From contig QPGO01000010.1 in the NCBI GenBank assembly GCA_008632985.1, positions 1 to 64,000 of the forward strand: a DNA stretch of 64,000 nt, in the 5' to 3' direction. Below the pieces are notes generated by a model. It did not search any database, was not told where the DNA came from, and worked only from the letters and a program-made list of their open reading frames with translations. Position 1 is the stretch's first letter. Each line of letters begins with the position of its first letter. Shown here in pieces: positions 1-25,036 of this stretch. The stretch comes from Psammoneis japonica (lineage: Eukaryota). Position numbers and translations under genes: made by a program.

Positions 1-715
1 ATGGAACACATGGAAATGCACATGCAAAACATGCGACGGATGACAAAAAACATTTGTGTCACAGTCCAGCAGCACAAGGTCCCACCCAGAGCTGGAATGT
101 GTCAGGACTTGGGTCAAGATGACAATGTTGATTTTGACATTTTCAAGGATGTCCAACTTGAAGACATTGTCGACGATCTCATGAAGCATTTTGAATCTAA
201 TCCCAAAGTCCATGTTGGAGGAACCACTGCCTCCAAGTCCAAGGGGGTGTCTCCAGAACTCTTGTCCAAGATCTGGAGGATCAGTGCCAAGGATGCAGAG
301 TGGACCATTGAGAACACTGCTCAACTCCTCCGATGCACCCAAGACCCAGCTTTCTCAAGGAACTGTTCCACGAATGACAGGATGCTGCGGCATCAACAAA
401 TTGCCCAGCACTTCTTCATGGATGCTTTCTTTGCAAGTAAAAAGGCTGGCAAGTCCACACAAGGACACTCGTGCATGCAGCAATTTGTTGCCAACAAAGG
501 CTTTGTCTGTGTGGTGCCCATGCATGCTTGATCTGAGACACCTCAGGCACTCAACATGTTTGCCAAGGAAGTGGGCGCACTGGAGGCGATCACATGTGAC
601 AGTGACCCAGCACAGAAATCTGATGCGATTTGACAACTTCTTCACTCCATTGGGGCCAGTCTTTGGCTGCTGGAGGAAGGAACACCATGGTTGAACCATG
701 CTGAACTGTGCACAT
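1..715 (+). mobile_element. Decayed Ty1/copia (diatom CoDi-like) LTR retrotransposon fragment, integrase region
   Basis: Frame 1 reads GVSPELLSKIWRI...SRNCSTNDRMLRH...HFFMDAFFASKKAGKSTQGHSCMQQFVANKGFVCVVPM and continues through TGA stops as SETPQALNMFAKEVGALEAITCD...LLEEGTPWLNHAELC. This matches the diatom copia pol motifs as I recall them (TNDRMLRY, FFMDTFFA, FVTDKGFVYVVPM, EEGTPWANRAELY), with Y->H/C and R->Q/W/H/stop changes. Truncated at about 715. Confidence 0.85.
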
Positions 716-1094
716 CAGAGGGCGCAACACACAGCAATCCAGCCACACCTTTTCATTGTGATTTTTGTTCATTTTGCAAATGAAGTTTTTGCAGTTTCAA
801 ACCTTGTCAGTTGTGCAGCTGGCAACAAATTTTAATCTGTGACAGGCAATTTGTTTGGCTGTGGCAACCTCTTTTCATCCACAAGAAAACAACTTTAACT
901 GTCCAAACGCCCCCCTCTTTTCCCATTTTGCATGTGCCTTCGTTCACTGTGACAGCTGACAATCAACACAATTAGCAGTTTTTATGTCATGTGCCTGTTT
1001 CATTGATTGAAGTGACACATGCAATGAATCTAGTCCACTCTTTGCAATCAACAGTGATGCATTGCTGCTGTGGCTTTTTAACATTGATTGTCGA

Positions 1095-2320
1095 TCAATG
1101 CCAAGTCAATGCTGCGGTCCCGGTTGTTCTGCATTTCTGGTTTGCTTGTGCTGGAGTCTCACTTCCTTTGCTTTTGTCACTGTCTTCTTGGCTGGCTGCA
1201 TCTTCCTCCTCATCTCTTTTGCCACCTGGTGCATCCGTTGCTTTGTCGTCCTCCTCGTCATCACTAGAAAGTTCCGTTGTTGCTTGTGTTCTCGTCTCCG
1301 ATTCCGCTGGTTTTTCAGTGTTTCTTCCCTTTTTTCCTTTGCCTTTGCTCTCCTTTTTCTCTTTGTCTGTGCTCCATGTGTTGAAATGCACACCCTGCTC
1401 ACTCGCCCTGTCTTCCTTTGCCTCCTTCAGCAGTTTGTTGAAGCGCAGCATTCTGCCATCCTTCTAAGAGTCACGCTGTCACGATGGGTCTGTGTGCAAT
1501 GGTGCCGGTTTCCCCTCTTCGTTCCCTTCATCATTTCCCTCCTGCATCTTCTTGCACTCCCAAACCTTCCAGCAGTTTCCCATCATCAACAGGGCCAGTG
1601 CCTCATTGCTTGCCACAGCCAGATCTGTGGCCTTGGTGCTGCCAGACTCTGCCAGACTCCTCCACATCGCAGTGCTCTTTGTGAATTTTAGGATGTTGTC
1701 ACAGAGCCATGCGTGCACCTCCCTGTTCTTTTGCTTCTCAGACACAATTGTGTCCATCATCCCATCCTCCCAGGTTGCAATGAATTCTTCTTCAATGTCA
1801 GCTTCACCCTGTTTCCGCTTCTTTCCGGATGCCTTCTTCCTTGCTTCTTTCTTCCTTTTCCCGCAGATTTCCCCGGCTTGTTTTTCTGTTGTGATGACTG
1901 CAGCAAAACAAGAAATTCATTGGTGGCACCACACCCATTTCTGCTTCAGAAATGCCCCACTCCGCCACACTTGCCACTCATTGCACTCTTCATTGTCGTC
2001 TGACACATGGTGTTTCTTTTTGCGTTGATCGCATTGAGCAAGCTTTTTTTAGCCCAGTCCTCCCACGATCCCACCCATTTGCGCTTGCTGAACTTGCCAT
2101 CTGCCATGTTTTTGCACATTGGCCAGGACACCTTGCCACCACTTGCCATGTCATCACTGACAAGACTCCTGTGGAGCGCTCCAGGCATGGCAACATTCAA
2201 TGGTTTGCGATTCAAGACTGGAAGGAGGCTGGGCACATTTTCACTTGACACCCACATGCCTGGCATTGTCAACACAAACGATGACCTCACCAAGGCTCTT
2301 GGTGCCACACTGCACACCCA
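1095..2320 (-). pseudogene. Decayed repeat-associated ORF (acidic/basic C-tail), probably part of a DNA transposon
   Basis: Fragments 1479-1760 (ASNEALALLMMGNCWKVW...PLHT) and 1095-1451 (GRMLRFNKL...EDR + acidic tail) resemble a recurrent diatom hypothetical family (SDEAFALL..EN.W..W...RFNEL). Interrupted by stops and inside a TpA-free block. The element class cannot be fixed by eye. Confidence 0.4.
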
Positions 2321-3479
2321 CCATGCCCATCAGATGATGGGACACTGCCGTTGATGCTTTGTTCTGCCCCATTTTTTCCCTGCAGAATTGCCCTTGGTCA
2401 CCTGTCATTTGTCTGTTCCTTTTCTGAGTCACCTGGTTGACTGCACTTTCTCAGATGGTTGACTCTCATCCCGCTGTGCCTTTCTTTTCTGTCTTTGATC
2501 TAGATTTGTCAAGATGACTTGTTTGGATCAGGGGAGGGTGAAAGCAGACCTGCTGTGGCACACGGTCAGACCATGTGCAGGGACGACGGACAGATGTCAT
2601 TAGATGGATGAGCAGACCCATCCGAGATCTGCTTCAGTCACTCTTTCTTGCTGGCACACATGTCATCCACTGTCACCAGTCTGCAGGGAGCTCTTTGGCT
2701 CACAGCTCTCACCATTGGTGCTCTGTCAAAGGCATCTTGGCTGAATCAATGGAGCTGGGGTCTCTCACTCTTGTCTCACACTTGAGCCTCTCTGGAGAAC
2801 TGCAAAAAAAGCTTGACCAACACATGAAATGCTTGTTTGTGCAGAGCTTGTTGCTGTCAAAACAACTTGTTAAAATGTCAAGAAGAAAGTTGATTGGGTC
2901 AACATTGCAAAATCTTTGTCAATCATGTCAGATGTCTCAGAGTCTCACAACAACTCTGACAATGTGTTTTCAACTTCATCTTCTTCAGATGTCATCCTCA
3001 GAGCCACTCATCTTGTGAAGGTGGGCAATGGAGCACTGGTCAACACGCAACAAGAAGATCCACAGGCTGGTCACTTGGACACACCACAGCTTGTGGCATT
3101 TGCCATGGAGTTGCAGATGACCATCTGTCCATCCAATCTGCCAAATGGGAAGATGCTTGCAGTGAAACAAGTCTCCATGCACTCAAAAGCCTTTGGAAAG
3201 GTTCCTCATTTGTCTCTTGAATGATCTCTCAACTGTGAACTTGACAACAAGATGCTTTGAATTCCCAGTTTTGGGTTTGATTGGATCCAAGTTGCAGAGA
3301 GGACAAAAAAGAAAAAGAGTTGTCTAGAAACAGTGATGTCTCCGTGGACCCTGCAATCTCAAATGCTGTGGTTGGAGCACAAGTCTGATTGCTGGGGATT
3401 GGACTGAAAGAAGACACTGAAATGGAGATTGCAATGATGGCAAGGAGGGTGTCATTGTTCTCAAGGGGTTGTCTGATCA

Positions 3480-5780
3480 GCGTGTGACGACCATCAAGTG
3501 GGAGGCTGTCACTTCATTGGGGCAATCCTGTCAATCAAGCAGGAAAAGATGGTTTTCACTGTCTTTCTTTTTCAAAGACTGTGCTGCCTCAGGGCTTGGC
3601 TGTGCCTGTCTCCCTGGGGCAGTGCAGGGCCATCTCTCCTTGTCAGAATGATGAATCACTCTGCTGTTGTGAGCACATGAGGAGTTAGAGAGCCACAAGA
3701 AGAGGAGCACATTGAAATCTGAAGAAGCAGTTGTTGGAGACTGTGCCTTGGTCACCACTGCACTGGAGTGTGCAACTGCAGAGTTGATTGATGCAAGATG
3801 GTCATGTCCTTTGCTCCTTTTCTTCCATCACAATGAGAGCTCTTGGAGCAGACAAGAAAAAAATTGGTGATCCATTTCTGTTTGGTGTGGACCCAAAAAC
3901 TTGCTCATGCTGGTGGACAATGGAGATCCCTCAGAAGACAGCAAAGAACATAAACTGCCAGACATGGAAAGGCCAGAACAAGGCACAAATTCATGCTTTA
4001 CATTTTGACAGGAGTGTTGTGTGTGCACAAAAGGAGTGAGGACCTCTTTGCCATCCATCAGCAGCTGAAAATGTTGTGCAAATGTGCAACCTGGCTGTCT
4101 CTTGGGTCACCTCCTTTGTTCAAGATGTTTTCAAATGGGGTCAGCACAAGCGGCGGTTGCTGCCCAGAGTTGGGATGCACTCAAGGACTGTGAGTGCCAA
4201 AAGTTCAGTGTGTGAGAAACAATTGCATTTTGACAAACTGAGACAAGTGGAAGATGCTGTGCCACTGAGAGAGTGAGAAGTGGGAAGGACTGGCAATGCA
4301 GAGGCCACACCACTGGTCACATCAGGCAGGGGATCTGACAAGAATGTGCCCCAATTGCTTTGCAGGACCCCTCCTGTCTCACATTCAAGCCCCTCTGGAG
4401 AATGGCGCTGCAAACAGGGATGACATGGACCATCCCTTTTGTGTGCCCAAAGTGCTGACCAAGACATGTCACGCTGGTGTGTGGAGCTTGCTGCGGTCAA
4501 GACATGTCATGAAAGTGTCAGGAAGCAGCTTGATCAGGTCGATCTTACAGTGCAAACTTTTTGCGGATCTTGTCAGTTGTCTTAGAGTCCAGGAATGACT
4601 CCAACAATCCTCATGGGGACTTGTCTTGTGAAGTTGGGGAATGAGGCACTGGGGAAGCATGACAAGATGCTGCACAGCTTGGTCACTTTGCAGCCACAGA
4701 TGCTCCAAAAACAGGATGAGCTCTTGAACCACTCTCTCAATTTCAGAGCTGTCATGAGATTCTGGACTTGAAGATGGGTTTGTGTTGGACCCGGGTTTCT
4801 GAAGGGTTCAAAAAGGACAAAAAGGTGTGTGGAATTGTCTCTGTGGATCTTGTGATGCCAAATGCTTTTGTTGGAGCATGTGTCTGCAGGGGTGGAGATT
4901 GGGATGAAAGAAGGCAGCACCATGGAAACAAAGATGGGTGTGATGGCAAGGAGGGGACAATTCTCAAGGCTCAAGGGCAGCTCTGATCAGCACATGTGGC
5001 CACCAAGTGGGACAGTGCAGCAACCACATTGGGGAATCCAATTCATCATCATGCAGGAAAAGATGACTTTCACAACCTTTTGGTTTTGAAGACTGGGCTG
5101 CCTCAGGGCTGGCTGTGTGCACATCTCCCTTGGGTGGTGTGGGGCCATTGATCATTGCCAGGACAAACCAAGCAGTCTGCTGTTGTGGTTTTGGTGAAGA
5201 GCTCAAAAGCCATGAGAAGATGAGCAAGTCAAAGTCTGGAGAAGCAGTTGTTGAAGACTGCACCTTGGTCATTGCTGTGCTGGATTGCACAACCATGGAG
5301 TCAATTGCACAATCTCTTGGAGCAGGCAAGAAAAAAATTTGTGACTCTTTGTCTGTTTGGCAAAAACCTGAAGATTTGGCAAAGCTGGACAATGAAGCTC
5401 ACACCCAGAAGAAGAGTGTTTGGAAAGTTCAGAACCAAGGCTTTGGATGTTGTGCACACATGGAAGGAGTGTGGGAGACCTCTGCACTCTGTGCAGTTCC
5501 ATCATCCAGTGAGCAGCCAGAAACATTGTGCAAGTGTGGCACGTGTCAGGGGTCACCTCCTTCATTCAAGAGGCCATTAAATGAAATTGATGAGCAGTGG
5601 TTGCTGCCCTGCAGTGGGGTGCAATGAATGGCTGTGTGCCAAAACTTTGGCATGTGAGAAACGACAATTGTGCTGACAAAATGGGCTGTGGGATTGACCA
5701 TCAAGCAAGTGTGGAGGCCCAAGTGGTGCAGGCATCTTCAAAGTTGAGACAAGCACCAGCAGATTCTGCGACACTGAGAA
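3480..5780. repeat. Diverged internal duplication (~3480-4280 vs ~5000-5780)
   Basis: Shared collinear motifs: CAGGAAAAGATG, GCTGCCTCAGGGCT, GAAGCAGTTGTTG, CCTTGGTCA, CTCTTGGAGCAG-CAAGAAAAAAATT, GGGTCACCTCCTT, GGTTGCTGCCC, CACTGAGA. Confidence 0.75.
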
Positions 5781-5976
5781 ATTGATGAGCAGTGGTTGCT
5801 GCCCTGCAGTGGGGTGCAATGAATGGCTGTGTGCCAAAACTTTGGCATGTGAGAAATGGCAACTGTGCTGACAAAATGGGCTGTGGGATTGATCATCAAG
5901 CAGGTGTGGAGGCCCAGGTGGTGCAGGCATCTTCAAAGCTGAGACAAGCACCAGCAGATTCTGTGACACTGAGAAA
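5583..5976. repeat. Tandem duplication, 195-bp unit x2
   Basis: GAAATTGATGAGCAGTGGTTGCTGCC starts at 5583 and at 5778. The copies differ at 8 positions, all transitions. Confidence 0.95.
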
Positions 5977-6215
5977 GCGAGAAGTGTAAAACGTTGGCAA
6001 TGTGGAGGCAGTGCCAGCCACATTGGGGGATCTGAGAATGTGCCCGTGTGCTTTGCACAGGACCACAGCACATCAAAGCTGAGACAAGAAGCATCAGCAG
6101 ATTCTGCAACACTGAGAAAGCGAGAAATGCAAAACATTGGCAATGTTGAGGCAGTGCCAGCCACATTGGGGGATCTGAGAATGTGCCCGCGGGCTTTGCA
6201 CAGGACCACAGCACA
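5935..6215. repeat. Tandem duplication, ~140-bp unit x2
   Basis: AAAGCTGAGACAAG...GAGGCAGTGCCAGCCACATTGGGGGATCTGAGAATGTGCCCG...CAGGACCACAGCACAT occurs twice. Confidence 0.9.
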
Positions 6216-6619
6216 TTTCTGATTGCTCCAATGTGACACACTGCCATGGTGAACACTTGGTGGCCTTGTTTCAAGGAAGCATCAGGCAATGTGCCCCCAG
6301 TGGCATCTTTCAATCCCCCCATGCTAAGATTGCAGCCACGGTGATGCAATGCTCTGACACAAAATCTGCAGCCGGTCTTTGCCACAGGGTGTCCCACACA
6401 TGACACAATTGCTGATGTTTGACGGCAGCATGGCTGGCCTGTGGCAATCTGTTTGCAAAGGTAAAGTGGCATGAACTGCCCCCATGAGGCCCACTGGCAA
6501 ATGATGATTGAAGCTTGACCAGTTGAACATGCAGGCCACAAGATTGCTGGCACAGCCAGCTCGGCAACAAGCGACACTGCATTTTGAGTTTGAGAAGGCG
6601 GCAGCACCGGCGGTGCTCT

Positions 6620-7010
6620 GTTTCAGCTGGAACAGTTTGCAGAAATGACACAAAGCTCAGCACAATGGCATGGCATCTTGTTTGGTTCCTCCCCTGGCAC
6701 AAACTCTTCTTGTTGATTGTGTTGCCCAGGGGACCGGTGGTGGAAGTGAAAAATGAGCGCCCCCCCTTGGCTGCCACACACTCCAACACTCATCATGTCC
6801 ACTCCTCTCCACCAACTGGCAGATGTGACATGTTTTGTTTCACAGAGGCAGCAGGGCTTGCTGCAAGCACCTGTCAAGAGACCAACACCACGTGATTTCC
6901 CTGGAGGCGGCATCTGCCTTTTTGGACTCCGGTCCACACCATGCTTCGAAACTGTGTGTTTCCTCATCTGCTTGTTCTTCTGTGCTGTCCACAGGATGTC
7001 GGATGCATGA
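6620..7010 (-). pseudogene. TpA-eroded third copy of part of the lipase-like gene
   Basis: Collinear with 10600-10950 and 15370-15600 (CTTGTTGATTG, GGACCGGT, GGCGGYATCTGCC, GCTTCGAAAC, CTCATC, TGCATGAGCT). Confidence 0.8.
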
Positions 7011-7471
7011 GCTCTACGTAGCTGACTTTTCCCGCTTGGCATTATCGAAATTACAGCCAGACATTGTTCTGGGAAAAAGCTCGGCTACCTTGTTGTTGGC
7101 GCCGCTGTACAAGCGCAAGCAACAGTTCTCTCTAGCTAGAGAGACCATGAAATTGTGACCGTGAGCGCGTCACGACATTCATGAAGCGCGCGTGCGATTC
7201 AAATTTATTTGACATATTCGAATCATTATATAGTTACTTAAGATGCATAAATCAGTAATGGATACATTCATAAAAACCGTTGACATGTTGCAGAACGCGC
7301 ACGTAGGTCTCACGTACGAAAAATGCGTGGAGCGAGGTTGAGACAACATGGTTGCGCCATCGTCGGAGACTCCACGCCGCACTTCGCAGGAACATCTGCC
7401 GCTTAACGACAAACTGTCATTTTCATACCAGAGAGAGCAAGAAGTGAGAAGAGGGTTACTAGGGCCCTACC

Positions 7472-10130
7472 ATGGTCAAACAAGAATTGTTCGATTCGTA
7501 TCCACGTGAGCTCCTCGACAAACTCGCAAAGGACCTGTGTTGCGTGGATGACAGGTCTGATCGCACGGGTCTCTGCAGCAGGCAGCTGCAAGAGTTCGAG
7601 GTGAAGGAACTCACGGAAGAATCCCGAAAAGAATTCGACAGGCGGATATTGAGGTATGCATTCACTTTCACTTTCAAGGGCAGGCTGCATGTGATTACAA
7701 AGGGAGGATTCAAAAACAAGAATTTCAAATTCAGGCTTTGTGTCGCCAAGGAGGATTTGGTAGAATTGTACACGGCCGTCAAGAACCACCCTAGAGACTG
7801 GATGCATACCGACGACAACGGCAATTTGACACTGTTAGGAAGCACCTACAAAAAAACGTTTGGTTCGTATATTGAATCTAACGTTGCCAATTGCAAAGCT
7901 CAGGACGTATACAAGTGGTTTGACGACGGTGATTATAAAACGGAAGTGAAAGCACAGGTCGACAGAATGCGGGAAGACAGGGAGAGGGAGGTAAGTTCAT
8001 GCACGTGAGAATTCTACGTATTTGGATGCCACGATACTGCAGTTCTGCAAGCTTATCTAACTTCTTTTTTTGTTCGTTCCCTCATCTGTAGCAGCGTACC
8101 GCGGCAGCTGCTACAGAGCGGACGTGCGAACCGGAACTGGTACACGAGCCTCGTACGCTTCCTGATACCGAGGATGAACAGTTGCCGGTGAGTACAGATT
8201 GTTATATTGTATTTTAGTGTGTACATTGTATGATACTCTGTGGCATTCTATCCACTTGTTTGCTGGCTTATTCATTTTGTATTCCGTTTCTCAATTAAAC
8301 TCCCCGCAGATTGTATCATCTTCCGAGTCGACGGAGGCACAACGCACTGGTCGCACTGGTGCTCCTTCCGTAGTGACGGGCGCCGCTTCAAATCAAACTG
8401 AGTTCCTTGCGTCCTTGCTGGCTGGTGCTGGCCAAGGAACGGGGGTCAACATTACCATTAATCAATATCAAGGCGATAACCGTCACTACGAAAACACCTA
8501 CAACGGCACCGCCGCTCCATCCAGTACCGACGGTAGCACCGCCGCTCCATCCAGCACTGACGGTCGCAACGCCGCTCCATCCAGTACTGACGGTAACACC
8601 GCCGCTCCATCCAGCACCGACGGTAGGAACGCCGCTCCATCCAGCACCGACGGTGGTGACCGCACTCCTAGTTGGGTGGAACGAATCTTGGAGGGACAGG
8701 AACTCCAAGGCAAACGAATCGTGGCGGAACAGGGACGCCAAGGCGAACGAATCTTGGCGGAACAGGGTCGAGTCTTGGCAGAACAGGGACGCCAAGGCGA
8801 ACGAATCTTGGCGGAACAGGAACGCCAAGGCGTGCAGCTAAGCGAGGTGCACAAACAGGCGACTACCAAGAAGCCGCCTGCTAGTGCCAGTCGCTACAAC
8901 CGTCATGCAAACAATCCCGAAGATACTTCACGGTACCAAAATGATGTATCTTCTCCACAGTAAGTTTCCGAGATTGTTTCTTTTTGTCATTTTGCGATTA
9001 CTGTCATTAATTGTTGTGACTTGCTTGCTTCTCATGTGGTTTTGGCAGGCGCAAGGAGGAGCCCTCGGTGCCCCATCGGAGCAGCGTCCGCGAAGAACTG
9101 GGCCCTCGGACGAAGCTGGAATACGACGAGATTACGTTGGTCTTTCAGGAGAAGGAGATGGAAACACCTATCGCGGTTCATCCCGATAACAAATTTCAAG
9201 GCGTTTTTGACCGGTACAATAAAGGGCAGGACAGCTTCATCTTCAAATTTGAAGGACGCGAAATCGATCCAACCCAAACACCAAGCTACTTAGGCATGAG
9301 AGACAAAGACGTGATTGATGTGGAATTGAAGAAAGGCGTCAGAAAAGACGCGCCCATTGAGCTTTCAAGTGATGAGGACGACGAGGACGAAGACGCACCA
9401 CCAACGGAGGATAAGACCCTCCCTCCTTTTTGTTGCTTGCGTGACAAATGCAAGCATAATCGTCCAGGCCATGTCCCTCACGAATGCCACGCAACGGGTT
9501 GCAAAGCGTATATCCACCATCTTTGCGCCCTTGAAGAAAAGCTACTCGGTCAAAATGAGAATCACGCCTATTGCTGCAAGGAGCACCAGATCTCCGGTGA
9601 GCTCAAGGAGAAAGAGCTCTCTTGCGAAAACAAGCCAAAGGCAGGCAGTCCTGCTGGTTTTGTCCATGGAGCAGCAGCGGTGGCTGGAAATGACAGTCGC
9701 CTTGTCGCTGCAACGCAGCCTACGTTTGATGTAGATCCGAAGCTCCGTTCGAGTTCGAATGCTAGCACGCCCGTCAATATGGTATGTGATTTTCTTTTCA
9801 TATTTTCTCTTTCTCAAACACTACATCGCCTAATCGACCGCTTTTGTCTTTGCTATGATTTCTTTGCTCAAGAACACGAACGTCGATAGTGGACCCGTCG
9901 ACGAGGTATGTGTGAGCGTCGATAGAGAAGATGATGGTGCCTCTGAGGGTGACGCGAAGCCGAGTGGCGATGGCGACGCTGCTGGCACTGCAGGTTCTCG
10001 AAAGGCCCCAGCTGGCACGGCGACGATCCGATGCGAAGCGAAAGTCAAGGGCGGGCATCGTCGCTGCAAAAATAAATTCACACCCAAATGTGAAGGGGAG
10101 AAATTCTGTTCCTTGCACACTCCCAAGTGA
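7472..10130 (+). CDS. Five-exon ~751-aa protein with low-complexity repeats, coiled-coil repeats, a SUMO/ubiquitin-like domain, a PHD-like Cys/His finger and a C-terminal CCCH-type finger
   Basis: Exons 7472-7990, 8092-8187, 8310-8959, 9049-9781, 9873-10130. All introns are GT..AG and all phases are compatible. SUMO-like motif FIFKFEGREIDPTQTPSYLGMRDKDVIDV; finger CCLRDKC..HECHATGCKAYIHHLC..YCCKEH; terminal CEAKVKGGHRRCKN..FCSLH. Confidence 0.8.
8500..8656 (+). repeat. Coding minisatellite, 30 bp x5 (AAPSSTDGxx)
   Basis: GCCGCTCCATCCAGYACYGACGGT repeated at 8511, 8541, 8571, 8601, 8631. The paralogue at ~13803 has a single unit. Confidence 0.95.
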
Positions 10131-10539
10131 GCGAAACTTGCATTTTCGACTCTGCGTTGCCTCTGTGTTGGTCTTCGTGATGTGGCAAAATAGTCGTACT
10201 CGTATTTGATATGTTGGCGTTTGAGAGTATTACGTGATATTGAGAAATAGCAACTAAAGTCAACATTCTGTATCTTTGAATTGAAAACGAAATGAGTCTT
10301 TTTGCTCAACGCTGTCTACCAAGCCGCACACTATCAATAGCATGGATTTAACACCCAGAAAGGATAAACCAATCACAGAAACCGAGCTAGCATTATCGAT
10401 GGCGACGAGTCACAGCTACGCCTCTACTGTTTTTCACGGATGCGCGGCTCATACTGAGAAGAGCGACCACTTACTTTCAATTCTGCATGAAAAGTCTCCC
10501 TTTCAATCTCCACATCTGCAGTGTGACCACATCCAGTAG

Positions 10540-12300
10540 GTGGTCGTGTATCTCCTCTACTGTAGCATGGTGTCCTACGTCGTGATCTCGCTTTTTGTAT
10601 GGCCCTGAGCTAAATGGCACGAAGTCTTATTCGGTTCCTCCATGAGTCGCAGTCCTGGCATAAGCTCTTGTTGATTGCATTGTCCAAGGGACCGGTAGAA
10701 GTAAAATGAATACCTTCCCTCTACTAACTGTCGGATGCAACATTACAATTCTGATTTATTTCGCAGACGTAGCCGGGCTGGCTACAAGTCGCGGTCCAGA
10801 AACCGACATCATGTGATTTTTCAAGGCGGTATCTGCCACCTTGGTTTTGGGTCCATATCTTAAGCTTCGAAACCGCGTCTTCTCATCCGCTTCTTTTGAA
10901 CTATCCACATACAAGACCGGCACAAAGACCGGTTTGTCGAAGTGCATGAGCTTACCGACATGTCGATAAAGCTTGGCTTGTTCCATCATTCCTCTCATTT
11001 TAAAGAATCTCAAATGCAAATTGACAAAGGACCTGGCAAAGTGATCGGCAACGTCAAAAGACGCCTTGGTTGCATCGTCCAGGAAGGCACTCAAAAAGTC
11101 ATCAATAAACTCAACATCAGAGTATCCTCTTGGTAAAACGTCAGCATTAAACACAACGTTGCGCTTATAAGGTTCAATCGAGTCATGTAAAAGCTTAAAG
11201 TATGCTCGGAAGGCTTGTCCAAGACTGTCGTCACGAGCGCAGAGATTGCAATGGCTATGATATCGACGTCCTTCAACGCTCCGACAAGTTTAGTCCAAAA
11301 AGGTCCACGATGCCACCAAGAGAGTATCCGGTGACAATCACTCTAGTAATGGGAGTTCCATCCCGTTTGAATCGATTTGGTTTCTTGCTGTACTTTCCGT
11401 TGAAATAATTGACGATATCCGTAGCGTGCTTTTTGAGATAGACATTCCAAATCATTTCATAATACGTTTTCTGAAAACCAAGTCCCTTCAACTTGTTCCA
11501 GGGCGACACCGAATCAATGTTAGCATCGGCGATGATGTCTTTGATTGTCACTGTCCCTCGCCACCCCAAGACGCCTGCAATTATTCCAACAAATGTGGGA
11601 GCATTCATAGAAAGCCAATCCGATAACAAATCCCTCAATGTTGGATGGAGTTGAAGCGTCTAAAATTTCATTGGCGGTAGCAGCGCACTCTTCGGTTTCC
11701 GATTCTTGTTACGCTTCAACCTTGCGAGCCGTGTCCTGATAGCATTTCTCGAGTACCACCATGTCGTCGTCCGATTCTTGTTTCTCGTTAACTCTTGGTG
11801 CTGCTCTTGTGACTCTCGCGTTTCTCGGATTCAAATCAAAAAAACAAATTACTAGAGCAAAAGAAATGCCGGAAATGGTTCTCATAGTTGCTTTTTGTAT
11901 GTTTAGCTCTTGCTTCTTGCTCGTTTCCACTGCTAACAAGTGCTCTTCCTCTTCTCGTTTCACGTGACGTTGTGCTCCCCACTCCCACCTTGCACCTTCC
12001 GCCAGCGCGTCATCAGCCGGTTAGGTTTCCGGATCGGTTGGCCACCTGAAATAACGGCTTTTCCCCTGAATACTCGTCAGGCAAGTTTCCGGAACGTTTG
12101 GCAACATGCATGATGCATGGCCCAACCTCTCCTCGTCTTGTTCGTTACTCGCCATGGTGTCGAGAGAGTCATTCAGTGTTCAGATGAACTTCCACCTCTT
12201 TTGGTTGGTTGCTTGGCGTTGCGTTCGCTCTCCACTCAGTTGCATAACATTGCGGTCCATGCAGATTGACTCCTCATGGCCGCCGTTGCTCTCTCTTGAA
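10540..12300 (-). pseudogene. Class-3 lipase-like (alpha/beta hydrolase) pseudogene, copy A
   Basis: Fragments LGWRGTVTIKDIIADAN, RVIVTGYSLGG (GxSxG nucleophile elbow) and FNADVLPR lie in successive different frames (11273-11638, 11091-11276, 10756-11154). Confidence 0.7.
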
Positions 12301-12379
12301 TCCAGAATGTGCTTTCGATTTCTGCATCGTGTCAGTCGTGGGAATCTGGAAATCATTCCAAACCGTTTCCACAGATTTT

Positions 12380-13070
12380 TTGCGGATGGCTGACGGACCA
12401 TCGTGATTTCGCGCGCCGGCCGCGCCGCCGGCCATCTGTCTGTCTGTCTTTCTTTCCAATTCCATTTTTCAATGGCCTTCTTCTTGGTCCACCTCAGGAA
12501 TTCCACCCTTTTGGAGGATCGCCAACGCAGAGCACTTGACCCTGACCATGCCCCACCTCCTCTGCTGGTTTTTGTTGCTTTTCAAAATTTCAATTTTGTT
12601 GCATCACATTTGCCGCTCTGTGTGCTTCATCTGCCATTTCATCATGCTCAATTTGGGTGGTGGCAGTCAGCTTTCTGGTTGATTGTTTTTTGGACACTGC
12701 CAACCATTGCAGTTTTTGGCATTTGGTTTGCAGCATGCTCCCCCATTTGACATTTGAGATGCGTGCTCTCTGCTCATCGCCTGACTTCGGCTCATGAGTT
12801 GCAGCTTCAACTCCATTTTCTTTTTTCTGGCTGGCTCCTCTTGTGCCTCCGATGCATCTTCAGCTAGCAGGTGGTCTGTTTGCACAATGTTGGGGAACAA
12901 ATTGGATGGAGCTGGAGCTGCAGACATTTGTTCCCTGTTTTCCAGCTGCCACCTGAGCAGCACACCACATGAGTGTGTGTGCTTGTGTGTGTTTCCAAAC
13001 ATCAGATGCATTCATGCTGCATTCATTTTGGCGGCCACTCGGCAGCTGTGCACTGTGTCATGTCATCGGG
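12380..13070. other. TpA-depleted block 2 separating duplication units A and B (probable TE fragment)
   Basis: Essentially no TA from ~12250 to 13070 apart from one GCTAGC; rich in CA/TG. Confidence 0.8.
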
Positions 13071-13469
13071 GTTGTAGCCAAGCCGAGGCGGTGGCGGGGA
13101 ATCTGCGATTGATTTGTGCACAGTAAAATGAATTTGTGAGTGCGCCAAAATCGTATGATGACGCACGCACGATTCAAACTTATTTATTGTATCAAACGTG
13201 GAATATGATGATTTTTTGTCTAATTAGAAAATGAACAATCTAAGTATTGGATACGTTCATAAAAAGCCGTTTGCATTTTGCAGAACACTCACGTACAGTT
13301 AGTGGTTCCCAATACAAACTCTACGTGGTGCTTGAGACATGCCTTGCCAACGGGCAGACTCCTCGTGACTCCGCTTTCAGCAAAATCTTGAATCTATCGC
13401 CGGGCCAGCGCCACAACGACACGACAACTGCTGTCATTTTCATACCAGAGAGCAAGTGTTGCGGCGGTG

Positions 13470-14300
13470 AGAACATACTGTTATATTGCACTTTAGTATG
13501 CACACCGTATGATACTTAGTGGCGTTCTATCCACTCGTGTGCTGACTGACATTTTGTATTCCGTTTCTCAATTGAACTCCACGCAGATGGCATCATCTTC
13601 CGAGTCGACGGCGGCACAACGCACTGGTGGTGCTCCTACCGTACTGACAGGCGCCGCTTCAGATGATTTACTTGCGTTTCTGGCTACTAGTATTGGTGAA
13701 GGAACGGGGGTCAACATTACTATTAATCAATATCAAGGCGAAAACACCATTAATCAATATCAAGGCGAAAACATGCATGTCGGCGACAACATCAGCAGCG
13801 ACGCCGCTCCATCCAGCACTGACAATGGTAACCGCACTCCTGGTTGGGCCGAACGAATCTTGGCGCAGCAGGAACGCATCTTGGCGCAGCAGGAACGCAT
13901 CTTGGAGCAGCAGGAACGCCAAGGCGAACGAATCTTGACGCAGCAGGACCGCATCTTGGCGGAACTGCGTCGCCAAGGCGTGCTGCTAAGCGAGGTGGAC
14001 CAGGCCAGAAGTGACGAGGAGGAAGACGCACCACCAACGGAGGGTGAGACCCTCCCTTTTTTTGTTGCTTGCGCGAGCACTGCAGGCATCCGTTTCCGGG
14101 ACACCTAACTCACGAATGCCACAAAGAGGATTGTGAAGAGCAAATCCACCACCTTTGTGCCTGGGACGAAAACCTTATCGGTGAAGATAATGAGTTGCAC
14201 GTGTATTGCTGCGAGGATCACAAGCTCTCTGGCGATCTGGAGGAGCAACAGCGCAACGGTGGCATCTTCTGAGCCTTGCACACTCCCAAGTGAGCGATAA
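13470..14300 (+). pseudogene. Deleted and frameshifted paralogue of the 7472-10130 gene
   Basis: Retains the intron, the SSSEST...GVNITINQYQG exon, RILAQQE repeats and the Cys/His finger (frameshift at ~14060). Lacks exons 1-2 and the SUMO-like domain. Confidence 0.8.
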
Positions 14301-15199
14301 TTGCATTTTTGACTCTGCGTTGCCTCTGTGTTGGTCTTCGTGATGTGGCAAAATAATCGTACTCGTATTTGATATGCTGGCTTTGAGAGTATTACCGGAT
14401 ATTGAGAAGTAGCAACTAAAGTCAATATTCTGTATCTTTGGATTGATAATGAAGGAGTTTTCTTTGCTCAACTATGTCTACCAAGCCGCACACTGTCAAT
14501 AGAATGGATTTAAAACACACCGAAAGGATAAACCAACCACAGAAAGCGAGCTGTCGTGTCCGTAGAGAGCGAAGCTTTTTGAAACCCTTTCTCTGCGACC
14601 GAGACCACGTGCGGTCGCGTGACCTGGGGTGTTTTAGCACGCATAGTATGTCACTAATGAAATTAATCGACGGACTGCGGCGTGCCCTTCTTCAATGTTG
14701 TTTTCCTACATATCGTGTAGGAGCGTCCTGTTGGATCGATCTTCGAAATTTGATACCGGGCTCACTTATTGTTGTATCTACAGAGGCAAAGTGTTTGGCT
14801 CGACTGTCGACGTCAAAATCGTGAAGCTTATCGGTAGTTTCTCCCCCAAGTTGGTCATTTCCGTAGACACATGGAGTTGTACAACACCGCTCTCATTGAA
14901 ACCAAGTCTTATACTGGAACCATTTTGTTTGTGGGCGCCGACGTGTCACAGCTACGTTTCTACCGTTTTTAATGGATGCGCAGCTCATCCTGAGAAGAGC
15001 GACCACTTACATTCAATTCTGCATGAAAAGTCTCCCAATCTCCACATCTGCAGTGTGACCACATCCACTGGGTCTTCGGGTATCTACTTTACTGCAGAAT
15101 GGTGTCCCAGCTCGTTGTCTCGTCCAAGATATAGCATGTCAAGGAAAAAAGCTACTAACTCCAATCTTGTTTTGATGGATTTCACGTAACCACAGAGAG

Positions 15200-17075
15200 C
15201 TCTACGCGACGATGTCGTATTTGTTATCAGCAGGAGACTTGACTTTCGAATTCCTTGAATCTTCCCGCTTGAGTCTACGTTGCTCCGCTTCCTCCTCGAG
15301 ACGTTCTCGCTCATTATTCCTGCGCAAATCGACCCCTTTTGTACGTCGTGGTCTCGTTTTTGTGTGGTCCTGAGCTAAATGGCTTATGATTCCTCCATTA
15401 GTCGTACTCCTGGCATAAGCTCTTGTTGATTGCATAGACCAAGAGACCGGTAGATTCTTACTCGTATCAAATCCCCTCTACTAACTAGCGGTTGCAACAA
15501 TACAATTCCGATCTATTTCACAGACTTAGCGGGGCTTGCTACAAGTTCTGGTCCAGAAACCAGCAACATGTACAGAGTCCGGTTTGTCGAAGTGCATGAG
15601 CTTGCCGACATGTCGATAGAGCTTGGCTTGTTCTATCATTACTCTCATTTTTTAAAGAAACTCAAATGCACATTGACAAAGGACCTGGCAAAGTGATCGG
15701 CAACGTCAGAAAACGCCTTGGTTGCATCGTCTAGAAAGGCATTGAAAAAGTCATCAATAAACTCAACATCCGAGTATCCTCTCGGTACAACGTCAGCTTT
15801 TTAAAAACAACGTTGCTCATATTAAGGTTCAATCGAGTCTTGTAAAAAACGTAAAGTATCCTCGGAAGGCTTTCCAAGAGTGTCGTCATGGGCGCAGAGA
15901 TTGCAATGGTTTTGTTGTCGACGTCCTTCAACGCTCCGACAACTATAGTCCAAAAGGATCCACGATGCCACCAAGAGAGTATCCGGTGACAATCACTCTA
16001 GTAATGGGGGTTCCATCCCTTTTGAATCGATTCGACGTCTTGCTGTATTTTCCATTGACGTACTTGACGATATCCGTGGCGTGCTTTTTGAGATAGACAT
16101 GCCTGCTCATTTCATAATATGCTTTCTGCACATCCCTGCAACTTGTTCCATGGCGACACGGAATCAGCATTGACATCGACAATGATATCTTTGATTGTCA
16201 CTGTCGCTCGGCACACCATAACGAGTGCCGAGCCTGTAATTATTCCAACAAATGTGGGAGCATTCAAAGACAGTCGTTCCGATACCAAATCCCGTCCAAA
16301 CGCGACTCCATTCTGAAAGAAGCGTAACGTCAAGTCTGGAAACATGTCTCGGATGTTGGGCAATTCTAAAACCTTTTCAAAGCCTCGCCGCGATGCAGCT
16401 TCATAAAAACACCTCTAGCGACCGTGGCACATAGGTGCAGCATGTCTTCTTCCACACCAATCATATCTTTGGATGGAAGATGCTTGATTCCCTCAATATC
16501 GATTTGAGTAGAAGCGTCTAAAATTTCATCGGCGGTAGCAGCGCACTCTTCGGCTTCCGATTCTTGCCACCCTTCAATCATGCGAGCGTGTCCTGATAGC
16601 GTTTCTCGAGTAAATGGTTCTTGCTTCTTGCTCTTTTCCACTGCTATTGTAAGTGCTCTTCCTCTTCTCGTATCCATATCATATCCTGCACGTGACATTG
16701 CCGTCCCTGCTCCCCATCTTGCGCCTTCCGCAACATGTGTGCAAGCTGTAAACCCCATGGTATGAAGGTGAGAAGAACCCTATAGCATCCACCACACCAT
16801 CAGCCGGTTGGGCTTCCGGATCGTTCCACTAACTGAAAACACCCGTAATTTGCAGCTGCTAGCGACGGTAATTTGTCGGGGAAGTTTCCGGAACGTTTTG
16901 CAACATGGCCCAACCTCTCCTCGTCTTGTTCATTGCTCGCCATGGTGTCGAGAGTCATTCAGTGTTCAGATGAACTTCCACCTCTTTTCATTGGTTGCTT
17001 GGCGTTGCGTTCGCTCTCCACTCACTTGCACGACATAACGGTCCACGCAGATTGACTCCTCATGGCCGCCATTGC
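15200..17075 (-). pseudogene. Class-3 lipase-like pseudogene, copy B
   Basis: RVIVTGYSLGG at ~15970-16000 and CRATVTIKDIIVDVN; several frameshifts; collinear with copy A. Confidence 0.7.
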
Positions 17076-17239
17076 TTCTGCGACTTGTGCGTCCACTCTC
17101 CATCGTGAGTCTATGCGTCGACCGTTCTTCGCGCGCGCTCGCACGCACCCGAAGGTCTCCTCACAGGCCTCTCGCGGAAGTAAGATGGACGATGTGTCAG
17201 GGTCGTATGTAGGCCGTTTGTTACGGTGCCATTTTTCCG

Positions 17240-20100
17240 TCGCACCGCCCGGGACCTGCCGCAAGCAGCATTGTTTCATTGCTGTCATCGGCGTGAATGA
17301 CTCCCAAGGCCATCCAGCACTGCAGAGTGAATCTTTCATTGGGACGTCACTTCCAGCATGACCACAACAAAACCCCGCAGTTGCGCGCAACCGCTGTTGC
17401 ACAGCTCCTCATTCCATCTTTCACAGTCGGACATGTTGATCCTTTTCTCTTGGCTTGATTGCACTGCTGGCAGCCACGCATGGAATGCCAGCTCTCCTTG
17501 TTCTTTGCTGTGGTCAGGGTGACACACACACCCAACACCCACCCTCCGCAGATCATCAATTGCCAAGAACCGCCACACCAGCTGGTGGTGATCGCAAGCC
17601 AGTTGCTGCAGAAGGCCACAAGAGACCGGAGGACACAAGCAGTGAGAACATCCAAGACACAGATTTCAAGACAAATCGATGATTGTGAGAAAAATCACTG
17701 CACAAACACTCACCACGACTTTGTCTTTGCACGGCTTGTGTCGTGTCTCCTGTGAGCATGCAATTGCTGCTGCAACCGCACTTGTCCCATTCTGTTGCCA
17801 GAGGCATTCACACTGTTGCAAACTTGTCCTGAGCTGGCACACATCTGATTCCACCTGCAAAGGTGTGAATGGTGTCAGCCAGTGCTGTGCAAAAGGCAAA
17901 ATTGTGAGGAGCTGTCATGTGTTCCTGTCATCGGCTCCACTCAAAGTCTTGAGATGAGTCAGCTTCAATGAGTGATTCTGAGTCAGGCTTCAAAGACATC
18001 TTTTGGATCTTTGGGTGCCAATGCTTGTGGAACACAGGTGAGCACATTGCACTTGCTTCCCCAAGAATGTTGCTGCTGGGGGGGCTTGTCATTCTTGGTT
18101 GCTTGTGCAGAGGCGAGCAGCAAAATTTTTAAATGCAAAATGCAAGCCAATGAAAGGGCAAACAGAGTCAGCAGTGGGTTTGGCAATTCATCCAAAAATG
18201 CAACATTCATGATGTGCTGTGCAAGCAAAAGGAAAGCAAAGATCATCATTGTCAGCTGGACAGATGATCACAAGCAAAGATTTGTTTGAACAAGAACAAA
18301 TGCCATGAATGTTTGCACTTTCTCTGCTGTCAGAACAATGTTGCCAGACATGTTGGACAGAAGTGGCTCAAATGTTGATGGCAGGTGGAGACAGAGACAA
18401 CAACATTGGAGATGAAAGAGTCTGGCCTGTTCCAGCTCCAGCAGCACAATGGACTCCTTCAAAATCAGTTTTTTTCCCCAATCAAAGGGTGGTTGTGCAC
18501 AAAAATGCCTCATGTTTTTTTTTGTGTGCACTCACCTCTTGATTTTCAAAACAATCAAATTTGAAGGAGTTTGGTGTGCCAAACAGCACAGAAAATTGGC
18601 TCTTGTGTGATGGATTGCTCATCACCTGGGGCTGGAACAGGCCATCCATGCTGTTGAAATTGAGCTGAAAAGAGAGAAAAATTGGGAAAAACACCAGTCA
18701 CAAGTCAAAGTCATGCATGCTGTGCATTCTGGCACAACTTGAGCAGGGACAAATGAGTGAGTCATGTCAACACAACATGTTGCATTGCACCTGTTTGCAG
18801 ACATTTGGACTGTCACACAAAGAACTTGGTTGAGAGGCGATCAAAAGTGCAGCAGCAGCCAAATCATCAGTGCTCATTTGTGTGCACATCATTGTTGTGC
18901 TTGTGTCTCTCCACCCTTGTGCACCCATGTTGCAGCTCACAATGATTTGGCTGAAACACAGACCTTGCCCCTTTGAAGCCCCCCTGCCACTTTTGCTTGC
19001 TTGCAACATTTGATCTTGTGCAGTCAACAAAGCTTGTTGTTTGTTTCAAGCAAACAGCAGGGAAAGGACAGACCTCCCATGCAGCGTTGAGAGCTGGTTG
19101 CGATGGTGCAGCACACACGTGCAGCAACAAGCAGGCAAAGGGAAATCATCACCACTCACCACCCTCAAACCTGCCTTGAACCTTGAACCTCCTTGCAATT
19201 GCCACAGAGCTGAAAATTTTGATGCAGCAAAAAATTGTCAGAGAAAAAAGAAAAGCTGGCAACACACATTTGCAGAGCAGCCCAGCATCAGATGACAAGA
19301 CCTTGGCTGATGACAACCCCAGACTGGCCCTGTTGAAATGGCCCTGTCTGCCCTCCCAATCAATTTTGCAGGACCACCCATCTGTCGTCCAATGGAGTCT
19401 GCACCCAAAAATGTGAAGTGAGTGCTCCTGCATGCTTCCATGTTGTGATGTGGGACTCACTTTGTGGCCACTCAGATTTTGCTTCAGCAGCCCACAAAGA
19501 TGCTTTGTGCCAAGTGAAACATGAAGCAGCTGACAGGAAAGCCAATGTGTGTGAGGAGACACTCAAGACAAACACCCAGACTCTGCCTGATCTCAAGGCC
19601 AGTGCTGTCAATCAGCAAGTGCAGCACCAATGCCAGAGCATGGCTGTCGTCAGCATGCCCATTGGCACTGAACGGCACTGAACTTTCATTCCAAGAGTTC
19701 CACAGTGTGCTCCATTCACAGCATGGCAGCACTCTGCCTGACCTCCTTGAGTGTTGTGATGGACATGGGTGCAAATTCTCTGTTGCCATGCTGGCCATGC
19801 AGTGGTCAAGCCATCTCATGACACTTGACGAAGTGCATGGCTGGCTGACAAATGGCAAAAGCCATGCTCAGAGTTGCAGGCAACTCATCATTGCCTCAGG
19901 GGGATCATGCATCCCTTCGTCTCAGACCAGCTCCAGGCACCCCCAGTGGGAGGATGGTGTGCTGGTCTACCACTTTGCACCACACTCCAAGTGAGTCCTG
20001 CTTGAGCTGGGCTCCAACTTCCCAGACCAAATGTTGACCACCTGCTCCCAGACAACCTTGACATTTAGCCCCAAGACAGCCAAAACACCATCACTGTCAC
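17240..20100. other. TpA-depleted hypermutated block 3
   Basis: TA is near absent (survivors include TTTAAA at ~18130 and TTTAGC at ~20066); CA/TG-rich; abrupt return to normal composition at ~20115. Confidence 0.9.
19270..19990 (+). mobile_element. Decayed non-LTR retrotransposon 3' region (CRE/R2-like, zinc-knuckle region)
   Basis: AWLSSACPLALNGTELSFQEFHSVLHSQHGSTLPDLLECCDGHGCKFSV resembles the recalled consensus AWL..P...NGT.LS..EFRD.L.LRYG.....LP..CDGCG.KF.V of CRE-like elements, again with R->H/Q and Y->H. Confidence 0.65.
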
Positions 20101-24045: not shown

Positions 24046-24319
24046 TTGCTACGAGCGTTTGTCGTTGCAGCGGATCTTTAATTAGTCCAGGCGATACCTG
24101 TTAAGCATGTCCAAACCAGATTTGTTGGATTGGCCCGCCATTCATGGTCATCGCTGCGCGGATCTTTCATTACAGTATTTTCTCTTCATTAATGCTTTTC
24201 TTCAGGCGATTCCTCGGAACCAAGTCTAAAATCCTGTTTTTCTTGTTCCAAAGTTATCTTCTTGTTTTTTTTTCCTTGGTAGTAGATGCTTATTTCTCTC
24301 TACTAGCTAGACCTCTACT

Positions 24320-24625
24320 CTAGTAGAGTGTGAATCCTATCTATCAAAGCCCATTTTGTCGAAAGCTTAGACTACTCAGCGACAACGATATTCTGTTTCT
24401 ACTTATTTCTCTCTAGAGTGTGGATGCTGTCTACCGCGCCAAAGGTGGCACTACTAGTAGAGTGTGAGTCCTATCTATCAAAGCCCATTTTGTCGAAAGC
24501 TTAGACTATCAGCGACAACGATATTATTTTTCTACTTATTACTCTCTAGAGTGTGGATGCTATCTACCGCACCAAAGCCAATTCTGTCGAAAGCTTAGCA
24601 CAACGATATAATATGTTTCTTATTC
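24320..24625. repeat. Intergenic tandem repeat, ~134-bp unit x2 plus a partial copy, TAG-rich
   Basis: TAGTAGAGTGTGARTCCTATCTATCAAAGCCCATTTTGTCGAAAGCTTAGACTA at ~24321 and ~24455; partial copy TGTCGAAAGCTTAG at ~24585. Confidence 0.9.
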
Positions 24626-25036
24626 TACAACACTGTATAGCCCTACTTTAGAGAAGCCCTACTAGCTGAAGCTGTCTTTTGCTGAGGCGTTTGTTCCTTG
24701 CTTCTCGTTTTGTTTTTTATCCTCAATGTAGATGATGGGTCGAACACTCTCTTACGTTCCGGCATGGCTCAAATGACTGGATGTGTGGAGTGAGATAACC
24801 ACGACGCTACTAGAAGCCCATTGAACAAAAACACAGGGGCATGAACGAAGACGAAGATCCTCATTCCGTTTACCAATAATAACTACGGTAATACACTCAA
24901 GCTGATAAACAAACATTCTATACATCATCGATGCGCTAGCGCTAAATAGAGTAATGAATCGCACCTCCTTGTTATTCAGAGCCGCGGACATGTATTCAAG
25001 AGATCTTGTGCATAAACATATATTCCTTGTGTAAAC

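Follow-up and report, generated by a model that had tools for sequence, protein, structure and literature searches.

What removes the TA dinucleotides from one copy of a gene end and leaves the neighbouring copy intact? This question is raised by a 64,000-nucleotide stretch of Psammoneis japonica DNA (GenBank assembly GCA_008632985.1, contig QPGO01000010.1, positions 1 to 64,000 of the forward strand), hereafter called the window. Close to its left end, a short segment resembles the 3' end of a neighbouring lipase-like gene, and CA or TG stands where the gene has TA. The original prediction, made from the letters of the sequence, was that the two form a before/after pair in which substitution of TA by TG or CA can be read directly. 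Our data comprised the window and one 6.7-kb metagenome contig. We found that the segment forms the rim of one of six islands that are depleted of both TA and CG and enriched in CA and TG. We consider it somewhat likely (probability of roughly 0.55) that the islands result from two context-specific transition processes, CG>TG/CA and TA>CA/TG, co-localized in what would be silenced, non-functional DNA.

Before and after copies of the same sequence

The 'after' copy (6664-6993, minus strand) lies at the right rim of the first island, B1, and comprises the decayed 3' coding end and the downstream DNA of the lipase-like gene. The corresponding 'before' copy (copy A, 10613-10909, minus strand) is normal in composition and covers the part of a gene that encodes the C terminus, together with the DNA downstream; the open reading frame of this gene spans 10756-11289 on the minus strand. 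The lipase label itself is borderline, as Pfam Lipase_3 scored 21.8 bits on one exon against a cut-off of 22. A further copy of this stretch, copy B (15342-15572, minus strand), is also normal in composition and lacks the equivalent of 10815-10921. The sequences were aligned by MAFFT (three-way) and the pair also by transition-tolerant local alignment, which gave a score of 235.5, whereas 100 dinucleotide-preserving shuffles averaged 30.3 and did not exceed 38.5. The homology proposed between 6620-7010 and 10600-10950 is therefore real, over slightly narrower limits, and all seven string pairs quoted in its support occur in the sequence and stand opposite each other in both alignments. Plain scoring of the same pair gave only 44, so standard repeat finders miss most of this homology. 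None of the 12 aligned TA sites was kept (6 became CA, 5 TG, and 1 CG), and only 2 of the 14 aligned CG sites were; over the whole of 6664-6993 no TA remains and part of the CG is retained. Counted by dinucleotide context over this pair and the second one described below, bases in TA had changed at 24 of 49 positions and other A/T bases at 42 of 202 (p = 1.3e-4), in agreement with the excess that had been expected. Both the homology and island B1 stop within about 20 bases of position 7015. The original prediction had thus seen the loss of TA, and had missed the accompanying loss of CG, the 7-kb scale of an island that is one of six, and the dependence on flanking bases described below.

A purine/pyrimidine-coded BLAST of the window on itself located a second pair, and only these two island-to-normal pairs were recovered by that search. 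The 'after' piece (29320-29511, plus strand) lies inside island B4, and the 'before' piece (52698-52893, plus strand) is non-coding intergenic DNA of normal composition about 200 bases to the left of island B6; their alignment scored 172.5, compared with a shuffle maximum of 40. When both pairs were pooled, 1 of 23 TA sites was kept and 22 were lost (10 to CA, 7 to TG, and 5 to other dinucleotides), CG being the outcome only once. Likewise, 3 of 28 CG sites were kept and 25 were lost, 10 of them to CA and 8 to TG. Among the remaining dinucleotides 240 of 392 were kept and 152 had changed, a difference from both TA (Fisher p = 3e-8) and CG (p = 1e-7). The members of both pairs also differ by indels and transversions.

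An internal standard for these losses is provided by a tandem segmental duplication, whose copy A (8181-12290) includes the unmutated partner 10613-10909 and whose copy B spans 13458-17076, with homology ending near 12300/17085 in an alignment of the two copy ends. The duplicates showed 330 mismatches in 2666 aligned columns (162 transitions and 168 transversions; about 88% identity), and the fraction of TA kept between them (0.70) was close to that of the other dinucleotides (0.71-0.86). Duplication alone is therefore no trigger, because A and B diverge normally. Outside TA and CG, transversions affected 17 of 355 sites (4.8%) in the two island pairs versus 168 of 2666 (6.3%) between A and B. 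Since transversions in the pairs are no higher than between the unaffected duplicates, age alone is insufficient to explain the loss of TA and CG. Transitions outside TA and CG affected 50 of 355 sites (14%) versus 162 of 2666 (6%). At comparable age, TA and CG have thus been lost at least about 15 times faster in the islands, and other transitions have accumulated about twice as fast. Neighbouring genes, AT-rich intergenic DNA, and ordinary tandem duplicates are untouched.

The duplication carries a Rad60-SLD (SUMO-like) gene in addition to the lipase-like gene. Copy B has several indels, lacking for example 8852-9227, 9681-10054, and 10815-10921, and is probably degenerating in the ordinary way. 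Within the Rad60-SLD-like gene, a contig of sequencing run X2 jumps 91 bases at 9780-9872 with GT..AG ends, which suggests a spliced intron and that this run (listed as 'DNA?') is RNA-derived. Run X2 has no cover over most island bins, and we did not use this absence as evidence.

Six islands changed in place on both strands

Islands were found by a composition scan and delimited by runs free of TA. Together they cover 23,892 bases, about 37% of the window: B1 (1-7015, continuing past the left end of the window; 25 TA and 87 CG in 7015 bases), B2 (12245-13075; 2 TA and 28 CG in 831 bases), B3 (17222-19968; 2 TA and 35 CG in 2747 bases), B4 (28068-31066; 7 TA and 74 CG in 2999 bases), B5 (41700-48552; 19 TA and 100 CG in 6853 bases), and B6 (53102-56548; 7 TA and 25 CG in 3447 bases). 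TA occurs 62 times in the islands, at an observed/expected ratio (o/e) of 0.04, versus 1601 times (0.59) in the remaining 40,108 bases; the corresponding figures for CG are 349 (0.24) versus 2325 (1.00). CA and TG are raised to 2626 (o/e 1.79) and 2732 (1.80) occurrences, versus ratios of 1.15 and 1.12 in the rest. The fraction of pyrimidine-purine steps (0.242 versus 0.239) and the G+C content (0.489 versus 0.481) are nearly the same inside and outside, and arithmetic on the counts sets a deficit of about 1928 TA plus CG against an excess of about 1977 CA plus TG. This composition is that expected of a pure transition exchange among the four pyrimidine-purine steps. About 6.5% of the expected TA and about 25% of the expected CG are still left.

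Comparisons between repeated units inside the islands revealed that the change took place where the sequences now stand. Tandem arrays occur in B1 (5583-5976 with a 195-bp unit and 5933-6216 with a 143-bp unit) and in B5, where the units of a diverged array (about 42050-43850; about 195 bp each) differ by many CA<->TG doublets; B6 holds a tandem pair (53780-54243). Differences of the CA<->TG type made up 61 of 154 adjacent double differences within islands (7 repeat pairs, 2136 columns) and 4 of 52 outside them (5 repeat pairs, 1949 columns), the pair 42639/42835 having been excluded from the count for self-overlap. In B3, contigs that sequencing run X1 yielded for other copies or alleles depart from the window by TG<->CA doublets, at 18218/18219 and at 18988/18989. 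Such doublets arise between units because an ancestral TA or CG was resolved independently in each, so the change occurred in place, after the sequences had arrived or been duplicated. Array units at 93% identity are already free of TA and still segregate for CG decay. A CA or TG step matched the step before it with a chance of 0.506, and the variance over 20-step runs was 5.6, compared with a binomial value of 5.0. The two outcomes thus alternate randomly along the strand, and both strands were hit, site by site. Outside the islands, the tandem pair 60188-60576/60616-60996 has a transition-rich look; its TA and CG differences proved symmetric between the copies, as in ordinary divergence.

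The islands are reproduced by the contigs of run X1 (31-mers, k-mer depth 33-36), which showed 0 differences over 2667-5612, 6160-7498 (spanning the border of B1), and 12240-12575. Assembly error is excluded by this agreement, although the support is not independent, as X1 may be the source sample of the window. Summed X1 contig depth was 270-1835 over 1-2668 versus about 35 over 2669-7337, so that by depth the left part of B1 (1-2668) is multi-copy and 2669-7015 is single-copy. Summed depth is 8-50 times the single-copy level over 1-2668, 16676-17342 (the border of B3), and 18010-18676. These three segments belong to repeat families that are at least 95% alike and already free of TA, and therefore TA-free sequence was amplified as such. 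In all, the islands hold multi-copy and single-copy sequence, tandem arrays, a gene fragment, and a whole pseudogene.

Because TAA and TAG are lacking in all six frames, the islands give long false open reading frames: 192 stop-free stretches of at least 70 codons in 23.9 kb, in which Cys, His, Gln, and Trp abound and Tyr is absent. When all 192 were searched with Pfam, the only credible matches were RING and UQ_con in B4, and no remnants of transposase, reverse transcriptase, or integrase were found among them. Matches to AAA_17, Hpre_diP_synt_I, and HA were weak, fell under the cut-offs, and were discarded. Island against island, and B1 and B3 against the 7-17 kb stretch, transition-tolerant alignment and coded self-BLAST gave no inter-island homology above controls.

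Flanking bases, direction of change and surrounding DNA

The bases next to a TA step influenced its fate. In the two direct pairs, T>C was observed at 17 of 31 R-T-A sites (R, purine) and at 3 of 18 Y-T-A sites (Y, pyrimidine). The seven string pairs of the original prediction, taken alone, left the flank rule tied, and it was the counted table together with a model of the surviving TA that decided it. Across the islands the survivors have a 5' pyrimidine and a 3' purine: 18 TTAA (71 in the rest of the window), 17 CTAA/TTAG (136), 7 CTAG (88), 9 GTAA/TTAC (222), 5 ATAA/TTAT (198), 1 ATAG/CTAT (155), 1 CTAC/GTAG (255), and none of the RTAY class (GTAC, ATAT, and ATAC/GTAT), which is found 475 times in the rest. 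A model in which the T on each strand is lost independently, at a rate set additively by its 5' neighbour, fitted all ten classes, with exponents of 3.05 for A, 2.73 for G, 1.14 for C, and 0.38 for T (likelihood-ratio statistic 107 against a single rate, 3 degrees of freedom). Read on the other strand, A>G is about 8 times faster at T-A-Y than at T-A-A. The rule for CG is different and weaker (A 0.86, T 0.97, C 0.56, and G 0.38; statistic 41), A/T-flanked CG being lost about twice as fast. In the pairs, C>T occurred at 6 of 13 ACG, 5 of 15 TCG, 4 of 17 CCG, and 3 of 13 GCG sites, versus a fraction of about 0.1 elsewhere.

TA and CG also differ at the island edges. TA density rises from 0 to normal within at most 100 bases at the borders. 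At one rim of each of four islands, the left one in B2 and B3 and the right one in B4 and B1, TA-free sequence keeps a normal CG density for 200-400 bases (rim windows 12245-12445, 17222-17422, 30766-31066, and 6515-6615, respectively), and therefore a CG-depleted core is nested inside a TA-depleted tract. The different flank rules, the different completeness of loss (6.5% versus 25% left), and the CG-normal rims point to two processes with one target.

The direction of change can be read from a decayed pseudogene in B4 (29595-30999, plus strand) that belongs to a RING/TRAF-like zinc-finger/UBC9-like fusion family. With tblastn, residues 2-461 of the family member P0122 matched 29595-30999 (E = 1e-35), the match being interrupted by in-frame TGA stops and a frame shift, and Pfam identified a RING finger at 29568-29786 and the end of a UBC fold at 30458-31066. 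A word-indexed protein search with the UBC-like fragment gave no match, and the fusion family was recovered by a full HMMER search. Within the 71 residues that align best, 25 columns have a clear majority among the homologues (at least 60%), and the pseudogene is unchanged at 16 of them. Two columns that hold Tyr (TAY) in 12 and 13 of the 14 homologues (all of other organisms) are Cys (TGC) and Arg (CGC) in the pseudogene, and a third, Tyr in 7 of 14, is Cys (TGT). Against solved RING and UBC9 structures, the pseudogene reads FCCLC for FCYKC, CPTCC for CPTCR, and AEACH for AEAY. Members of the family (P0122, with 462 residues, P0138, P0126, and P0128) combine a RING finger, a TRAF-like zinc-finger stretch, and a UBC9-like fold in one chain, and by its sequence the family looks like a putative E3-E2 fusion. 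Its conserved C-terminal Cys/Trp-rich tail (CSCCAWG...MRFLW) is recognizable in the B4 pseudogene too.

The original prediction had polarized the change by means of copy B. At the 7 aligned sites where copy A has TA, copy B indeed keeps it, and 4 further sites are uncovered, falling in the missing 10815-10921. The polarization itself is weak: as tandem duplicates, A and B are probably sister copies, and their agreement on TA locates the branch of the change without rooting it. In principle, then, the island copy could be ancestral and the normal copies could have gained TA by classical repeat-induced point mutation (RIP; C>T at CpA). We regard this as practically untenable. The normal copies match all window genes and intergenic DNA in composition and the islands are the outliers, CG would also have had to arise from CA and TG at the same sites, and homologues of other organisms, which serve as an outgroup, have Tyr where the island has Cys or Arg. 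Fungal-type RIP in reverse cannot yield the pattern either, because CG was lost to the same products as TA. The direction from TA to CA and TG is therefore fixed by the outlying composition of the islands, the shared products of CG, and the converted Tyr columns, and the lipase-like sequences are a genuine before/after pair in the sense originally proposed.

The DNA around the islands is nuclear DNA of a pennate-type diatom. Its genes are long, nearly intron-free open reading frames, with products that include an MFS transporter, a bicarbonate transporter, a cytochrome P450, leucine-rich-repeat proteins, a DnaJ/zuotin protein, and an NmrA-like protein (36402-37445). The nearest named relatives of the latter are from Phaeodactylum (67% identity), Epithemia (63%), and Nitzschia (59%), and its best other matches reach 76-77% identity. 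Since AT-rich intergenic DNA outside the islands (24001-25000) keeps a TA o/e near 1, the TA- and CG-poor state is not a neutral equilibrium of the whole genome. An extreme opposite to the islands was observed at 33001-33500 (TA o/e 1.77, CA/TG o/e 0.59), where a low-complexity tract of CTAG, TAGAG, and CTCT words (33130-33350) lies between putative fucosyltransferase-like and bicarbonate-transporter genes. No Rfam family matched the sequence at gathering thresholds.

Similar islands were found outside the window. A metagenome collection was scanned with the NmrA-like family and 26 loci were retrieved, one of which (L017, from another organism and a separate assembly) encodes a 43%-identical NmrA-like homologue. 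Its gene (1735-3120) is normal in composition and is flanked by two tracts (1-1290 and about 3918-5533) with TA o/e of 0-0.17, CG o/e of 0-0.49, and CA/TG o/e of 1.6-2.15, in which the surviving TA is mostly in TTAA, CTAA/TTAG, CTAG, and ATAA/TTAT. The NmrA-like protein of this contig has long Thr/Ser-rich inserts.

Possible mechanisms and their meaning

In the reading that we favour, the first process, CG>TG/CA, would most simply be caused by deamination of 5-methylcytosine in silenced, methylated DNA. The second, TA>CA/TG, would consist of T>C at N-T-A, most readily after A or G (A ~ G), less so after C, and least after T, which amounts to A>G at T-A-Y on the other strand; it acts faster than CG loss and reaches 200-400 bases further out at several rims. 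It could be the work of an adenine deaminase that acts on DNA and prefers T-A-Y, or it could follow from a mutagenic modification that thymine (or adenine) receives at R-T-A/TpA on silenced DNA. Long-term accumulation appears to fit better than a single burst, given rates relative to transversions that are like those of methyl-CpG decay. The segment 6620-7010 is no more than the rim of B1; it copies the 3' end of the neighbouring gene, which makes the process directly readable there.

Each of the known processes shares part of this pattern. Like RIP in ascomycete fungi, the change affects kilobase-long dead or repeated tracts by transitions in one dinucleotide context, with sharp borders, and kills genes inside. 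However, RIP turns CA and TG into TA and lowers G+C, whereas the islands have turned TA and CG into CA and TG at unchanged G+C, with neither an excess of TpA nor a deficit of CpA/TpG. RIP also hits both copies of a duplicate, whereas here A, B, and the partner 10613-10909 are unmutated; the same-strand runs of RIP are absent, and T>C or A>G chemistry is impossible by cytosine deamination. With methyl-CpG decay the islands share a CG>TG/CA change confined to them (CG o/e 0.24 versus 1.00; 18 of 25 lost CG became TG or CA), a rate about 15 times that of other transitions, and the roughly two-fold faster loss of A/T-flanked CG. This explains half of the pattern only. The loss of TA is faster and fuller (22 of 23 versus 25 of 28 for CG) and, like the CG-normal TA-free rims, has no counterpart in methyl-CpG decay. 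Enzymes of the APOBEC/AID type make strand-coordinated clusters of C>T in TC, CC, or WRC, whereas C>T in the islands occurs mainly in CG and without strand clusters.

Chemistry directed at A is known from RNA. ADAR hyper-editing and the tRNA A34 deaminases TadA and ADAT2/3 produce A>G with a 5' U/T neighbour, the tRNA enzymes always on a U-A step, and trypanosome ADAT2/3 reportedly deaminates C in DNA too. All of these act on RNA, and ADAR prefers a 3' G, whereas the islands prefer a 3' pyrimidine (A>G at T-A-Y). Editing by ADAR followed by retro-copying would also mark one strand, whereas TA>TG (7/23) and TA>CA (10/23) are interleaved here without strand runs. In dinoflagellates, 5-hydroxymethyluracil shows a preference for TpA. 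A TET/JBP dioxygenase places it on transposons, where it marks and silences repeats (PMC11572971), so that a different lineage, within the supergroup to which diatoms belong, offers a precedent for repeat-confined chemistry directed at T. The accessible part of that work reports no mutational footprint. Context-targeted hypermutation of transposons, at TCG, is also described in Pucciniomycotina fungi (PMC3318451). Our literature search, which left most subscription journals and the supplements of diatom genome papers outside its scope, found no account of TA>CA/TG tracts, or of the erasure of TA and CG together, in diatoms or elsewhere, and a search on adenine deaminases in genome defence likewise gave no prior description of the pattern. 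The kind of process is thus known (context-specific hypermutation or decay of silenced DNA), and the direction, the motif, and the dual target are new; for the TpA chemistry no counterpart is known among described processes of genome defence or decay.

Several points weigh against two processes in silenced DNA. The direct pairs are small (23 TA and 28 CG sites), and other transitions are about twice as frequent in the islands as between A and B, which leaves the specificity strong but short of absolute. Since TA-free runs served to draw the island borders, there is some circularity in the TA count, though not in the CG, CA/TG, and step-fraction figures, and the flank model takes the original 4-mer composition of the islands to have been that found elsewhere in the window. 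The terms 'silenced DNA' and '5-methylcytosine' are themselves interpretations. No islands were seen in 25 of the 26 metagenome loci, four of which are 10-21 kb long and most others short; the process may be restricted to certain lineages. Finally, the borders are sharper than a nucleosome, and that of B1 falls at the end of a duplicated fragment, as would be more expected of a target defined by its sequence (an insertion or a repeat) than of a chromatin domain. Both points speak for the main rival, a homology-triggered, RIP-like burst in which dedicated enzymes detect duplicated DNA (for example before meiosis) and mutate it heavily, within a few rounds or a single one, at TA and CG and not at CpA. 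The repeats and tandem arrays in the islands, and the TA transition within at most 100 bases, point the same way, and many diatoms encode a DNMT4 that groups with fungal RID and whose function is not known (PMC9998398). We nevertheless consider such a burst unlikely, at perhaps one chance in several. The 4-kb duplicates A and B diverge normally, with TA kept at 0.70, the partner of the lipase-like pair is unmutated, contig depth shows a large part of B1 (2669-7015) to be single-copy, and the islands bear no resemblance to one another even in transition-tolerant alignment. Moreover, CA and TG outcomes show no same-strand runs, and the segregation of CG decay between TA-free units that are 93% identical looks gradual.

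A gradual alternative is biased mismatch repair, in which a very active T:G glycosylase, serving in methylated domains to counteract the deamination of 5-methylcytosine, also excises the correct T of replication mispairs and so fixes T>C, best before A. It would tie the gain of T>C to the domains that lose CG, and it predicts strand-symmetric, site-by-site accumulation and a general rise of transitions in islands; mismatch thymine glycosylases have been reported to excise T aberrantly from normal pairs (PMC4041421). Repair of such strength should, however, protect CG, which stands at an o/e of 0.24, and the loss of TA extends past the CG-depleted core at the rims. We also know of no T:G glycosylase with a near-absolute need for a 3' A and an eight-fold preference for a 5' purine, and we think this explanation improbable. 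A composition that was selected or inherited, in foreign or transposon DNA that had lacked TA and CG from the start (as an escape from a host nuclease or sensor, for instance), would account for the parts of B1 and B3 that are multi-copy at an identity of at least 95% while free of TA. It is very improbable, as island sequence is host-derived with traceable counterparts that bear TA and CG, and a host-type pseudogene with converted Tyr codons lies inside; the same array site is CA in one unit and TG in another, which is a mark of mutation and not of selection, and a Tyr-free coding capacity seems implausible for an autonomous element. Lower still we place a technical artefact, whether modified bases had been miscalled (in reads or consensus) or the assembly had included reads from chemically converted DNA. 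The islands are just where one would expect such bases, and the library type of run X1 has no record. Yet its contigs reproduce the islands and a border without a difference, at a k-mer depth that implies accurate reads, and independent miscalls would often give CG or leave TA, each of which was seen at 1 of 23 sites. Indels and transversions also separate the pairs, and the separate metagenome assembly carries the same pattern.

To our knowledge, it is mainly in fungi that repeats undergo context-specific hypermutation, and always as C>T. The islands show the opposite chemistry (T>C or A>G at TpA) on a like target in ecologically dominant algae, where it has reshaped more than a third of the window. 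Gene callers would report the stop-free stretches of such islands as proteins, and repeat finders intolerant of transitions miss their homology (44 versus 235.5 for the lipase-like pair). The signature of missing TA and CG would offer a simple genome-wide marker of old silenced DNA. As a by-product of base modification, the TpA change would imply that diatoms carry a TpA-directed epigenetic mark not yet described; as the work of an enzyme, it would imply an undescribed activity that modifies or deaminates DNA at a tight motif, R-T-A/T-A-Y. We tentatively suggest, as a possibility that we rate below an even chance, that diatoms (at least this lineage and the organism behind the metagenome contig) have a dedicated DNA-level mutator, a 'reverse RIP' in which enzymes convert A:T to G:C at TpA in silenced or invasive DNA, either by deaminating adenine in the DNA or by oxidizing or otherwise altering the thymine, alongside CpG deamination. 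Such a system would erase all TAA and TAG stops, Tyr codons, TATA-like elements, and CpG from its target. If so, eukaryotes would have a natural genome-defence chemistry of the A:T>G:C kind, the first of its type, from which a TpA-specific DNA base editor could be drawn.

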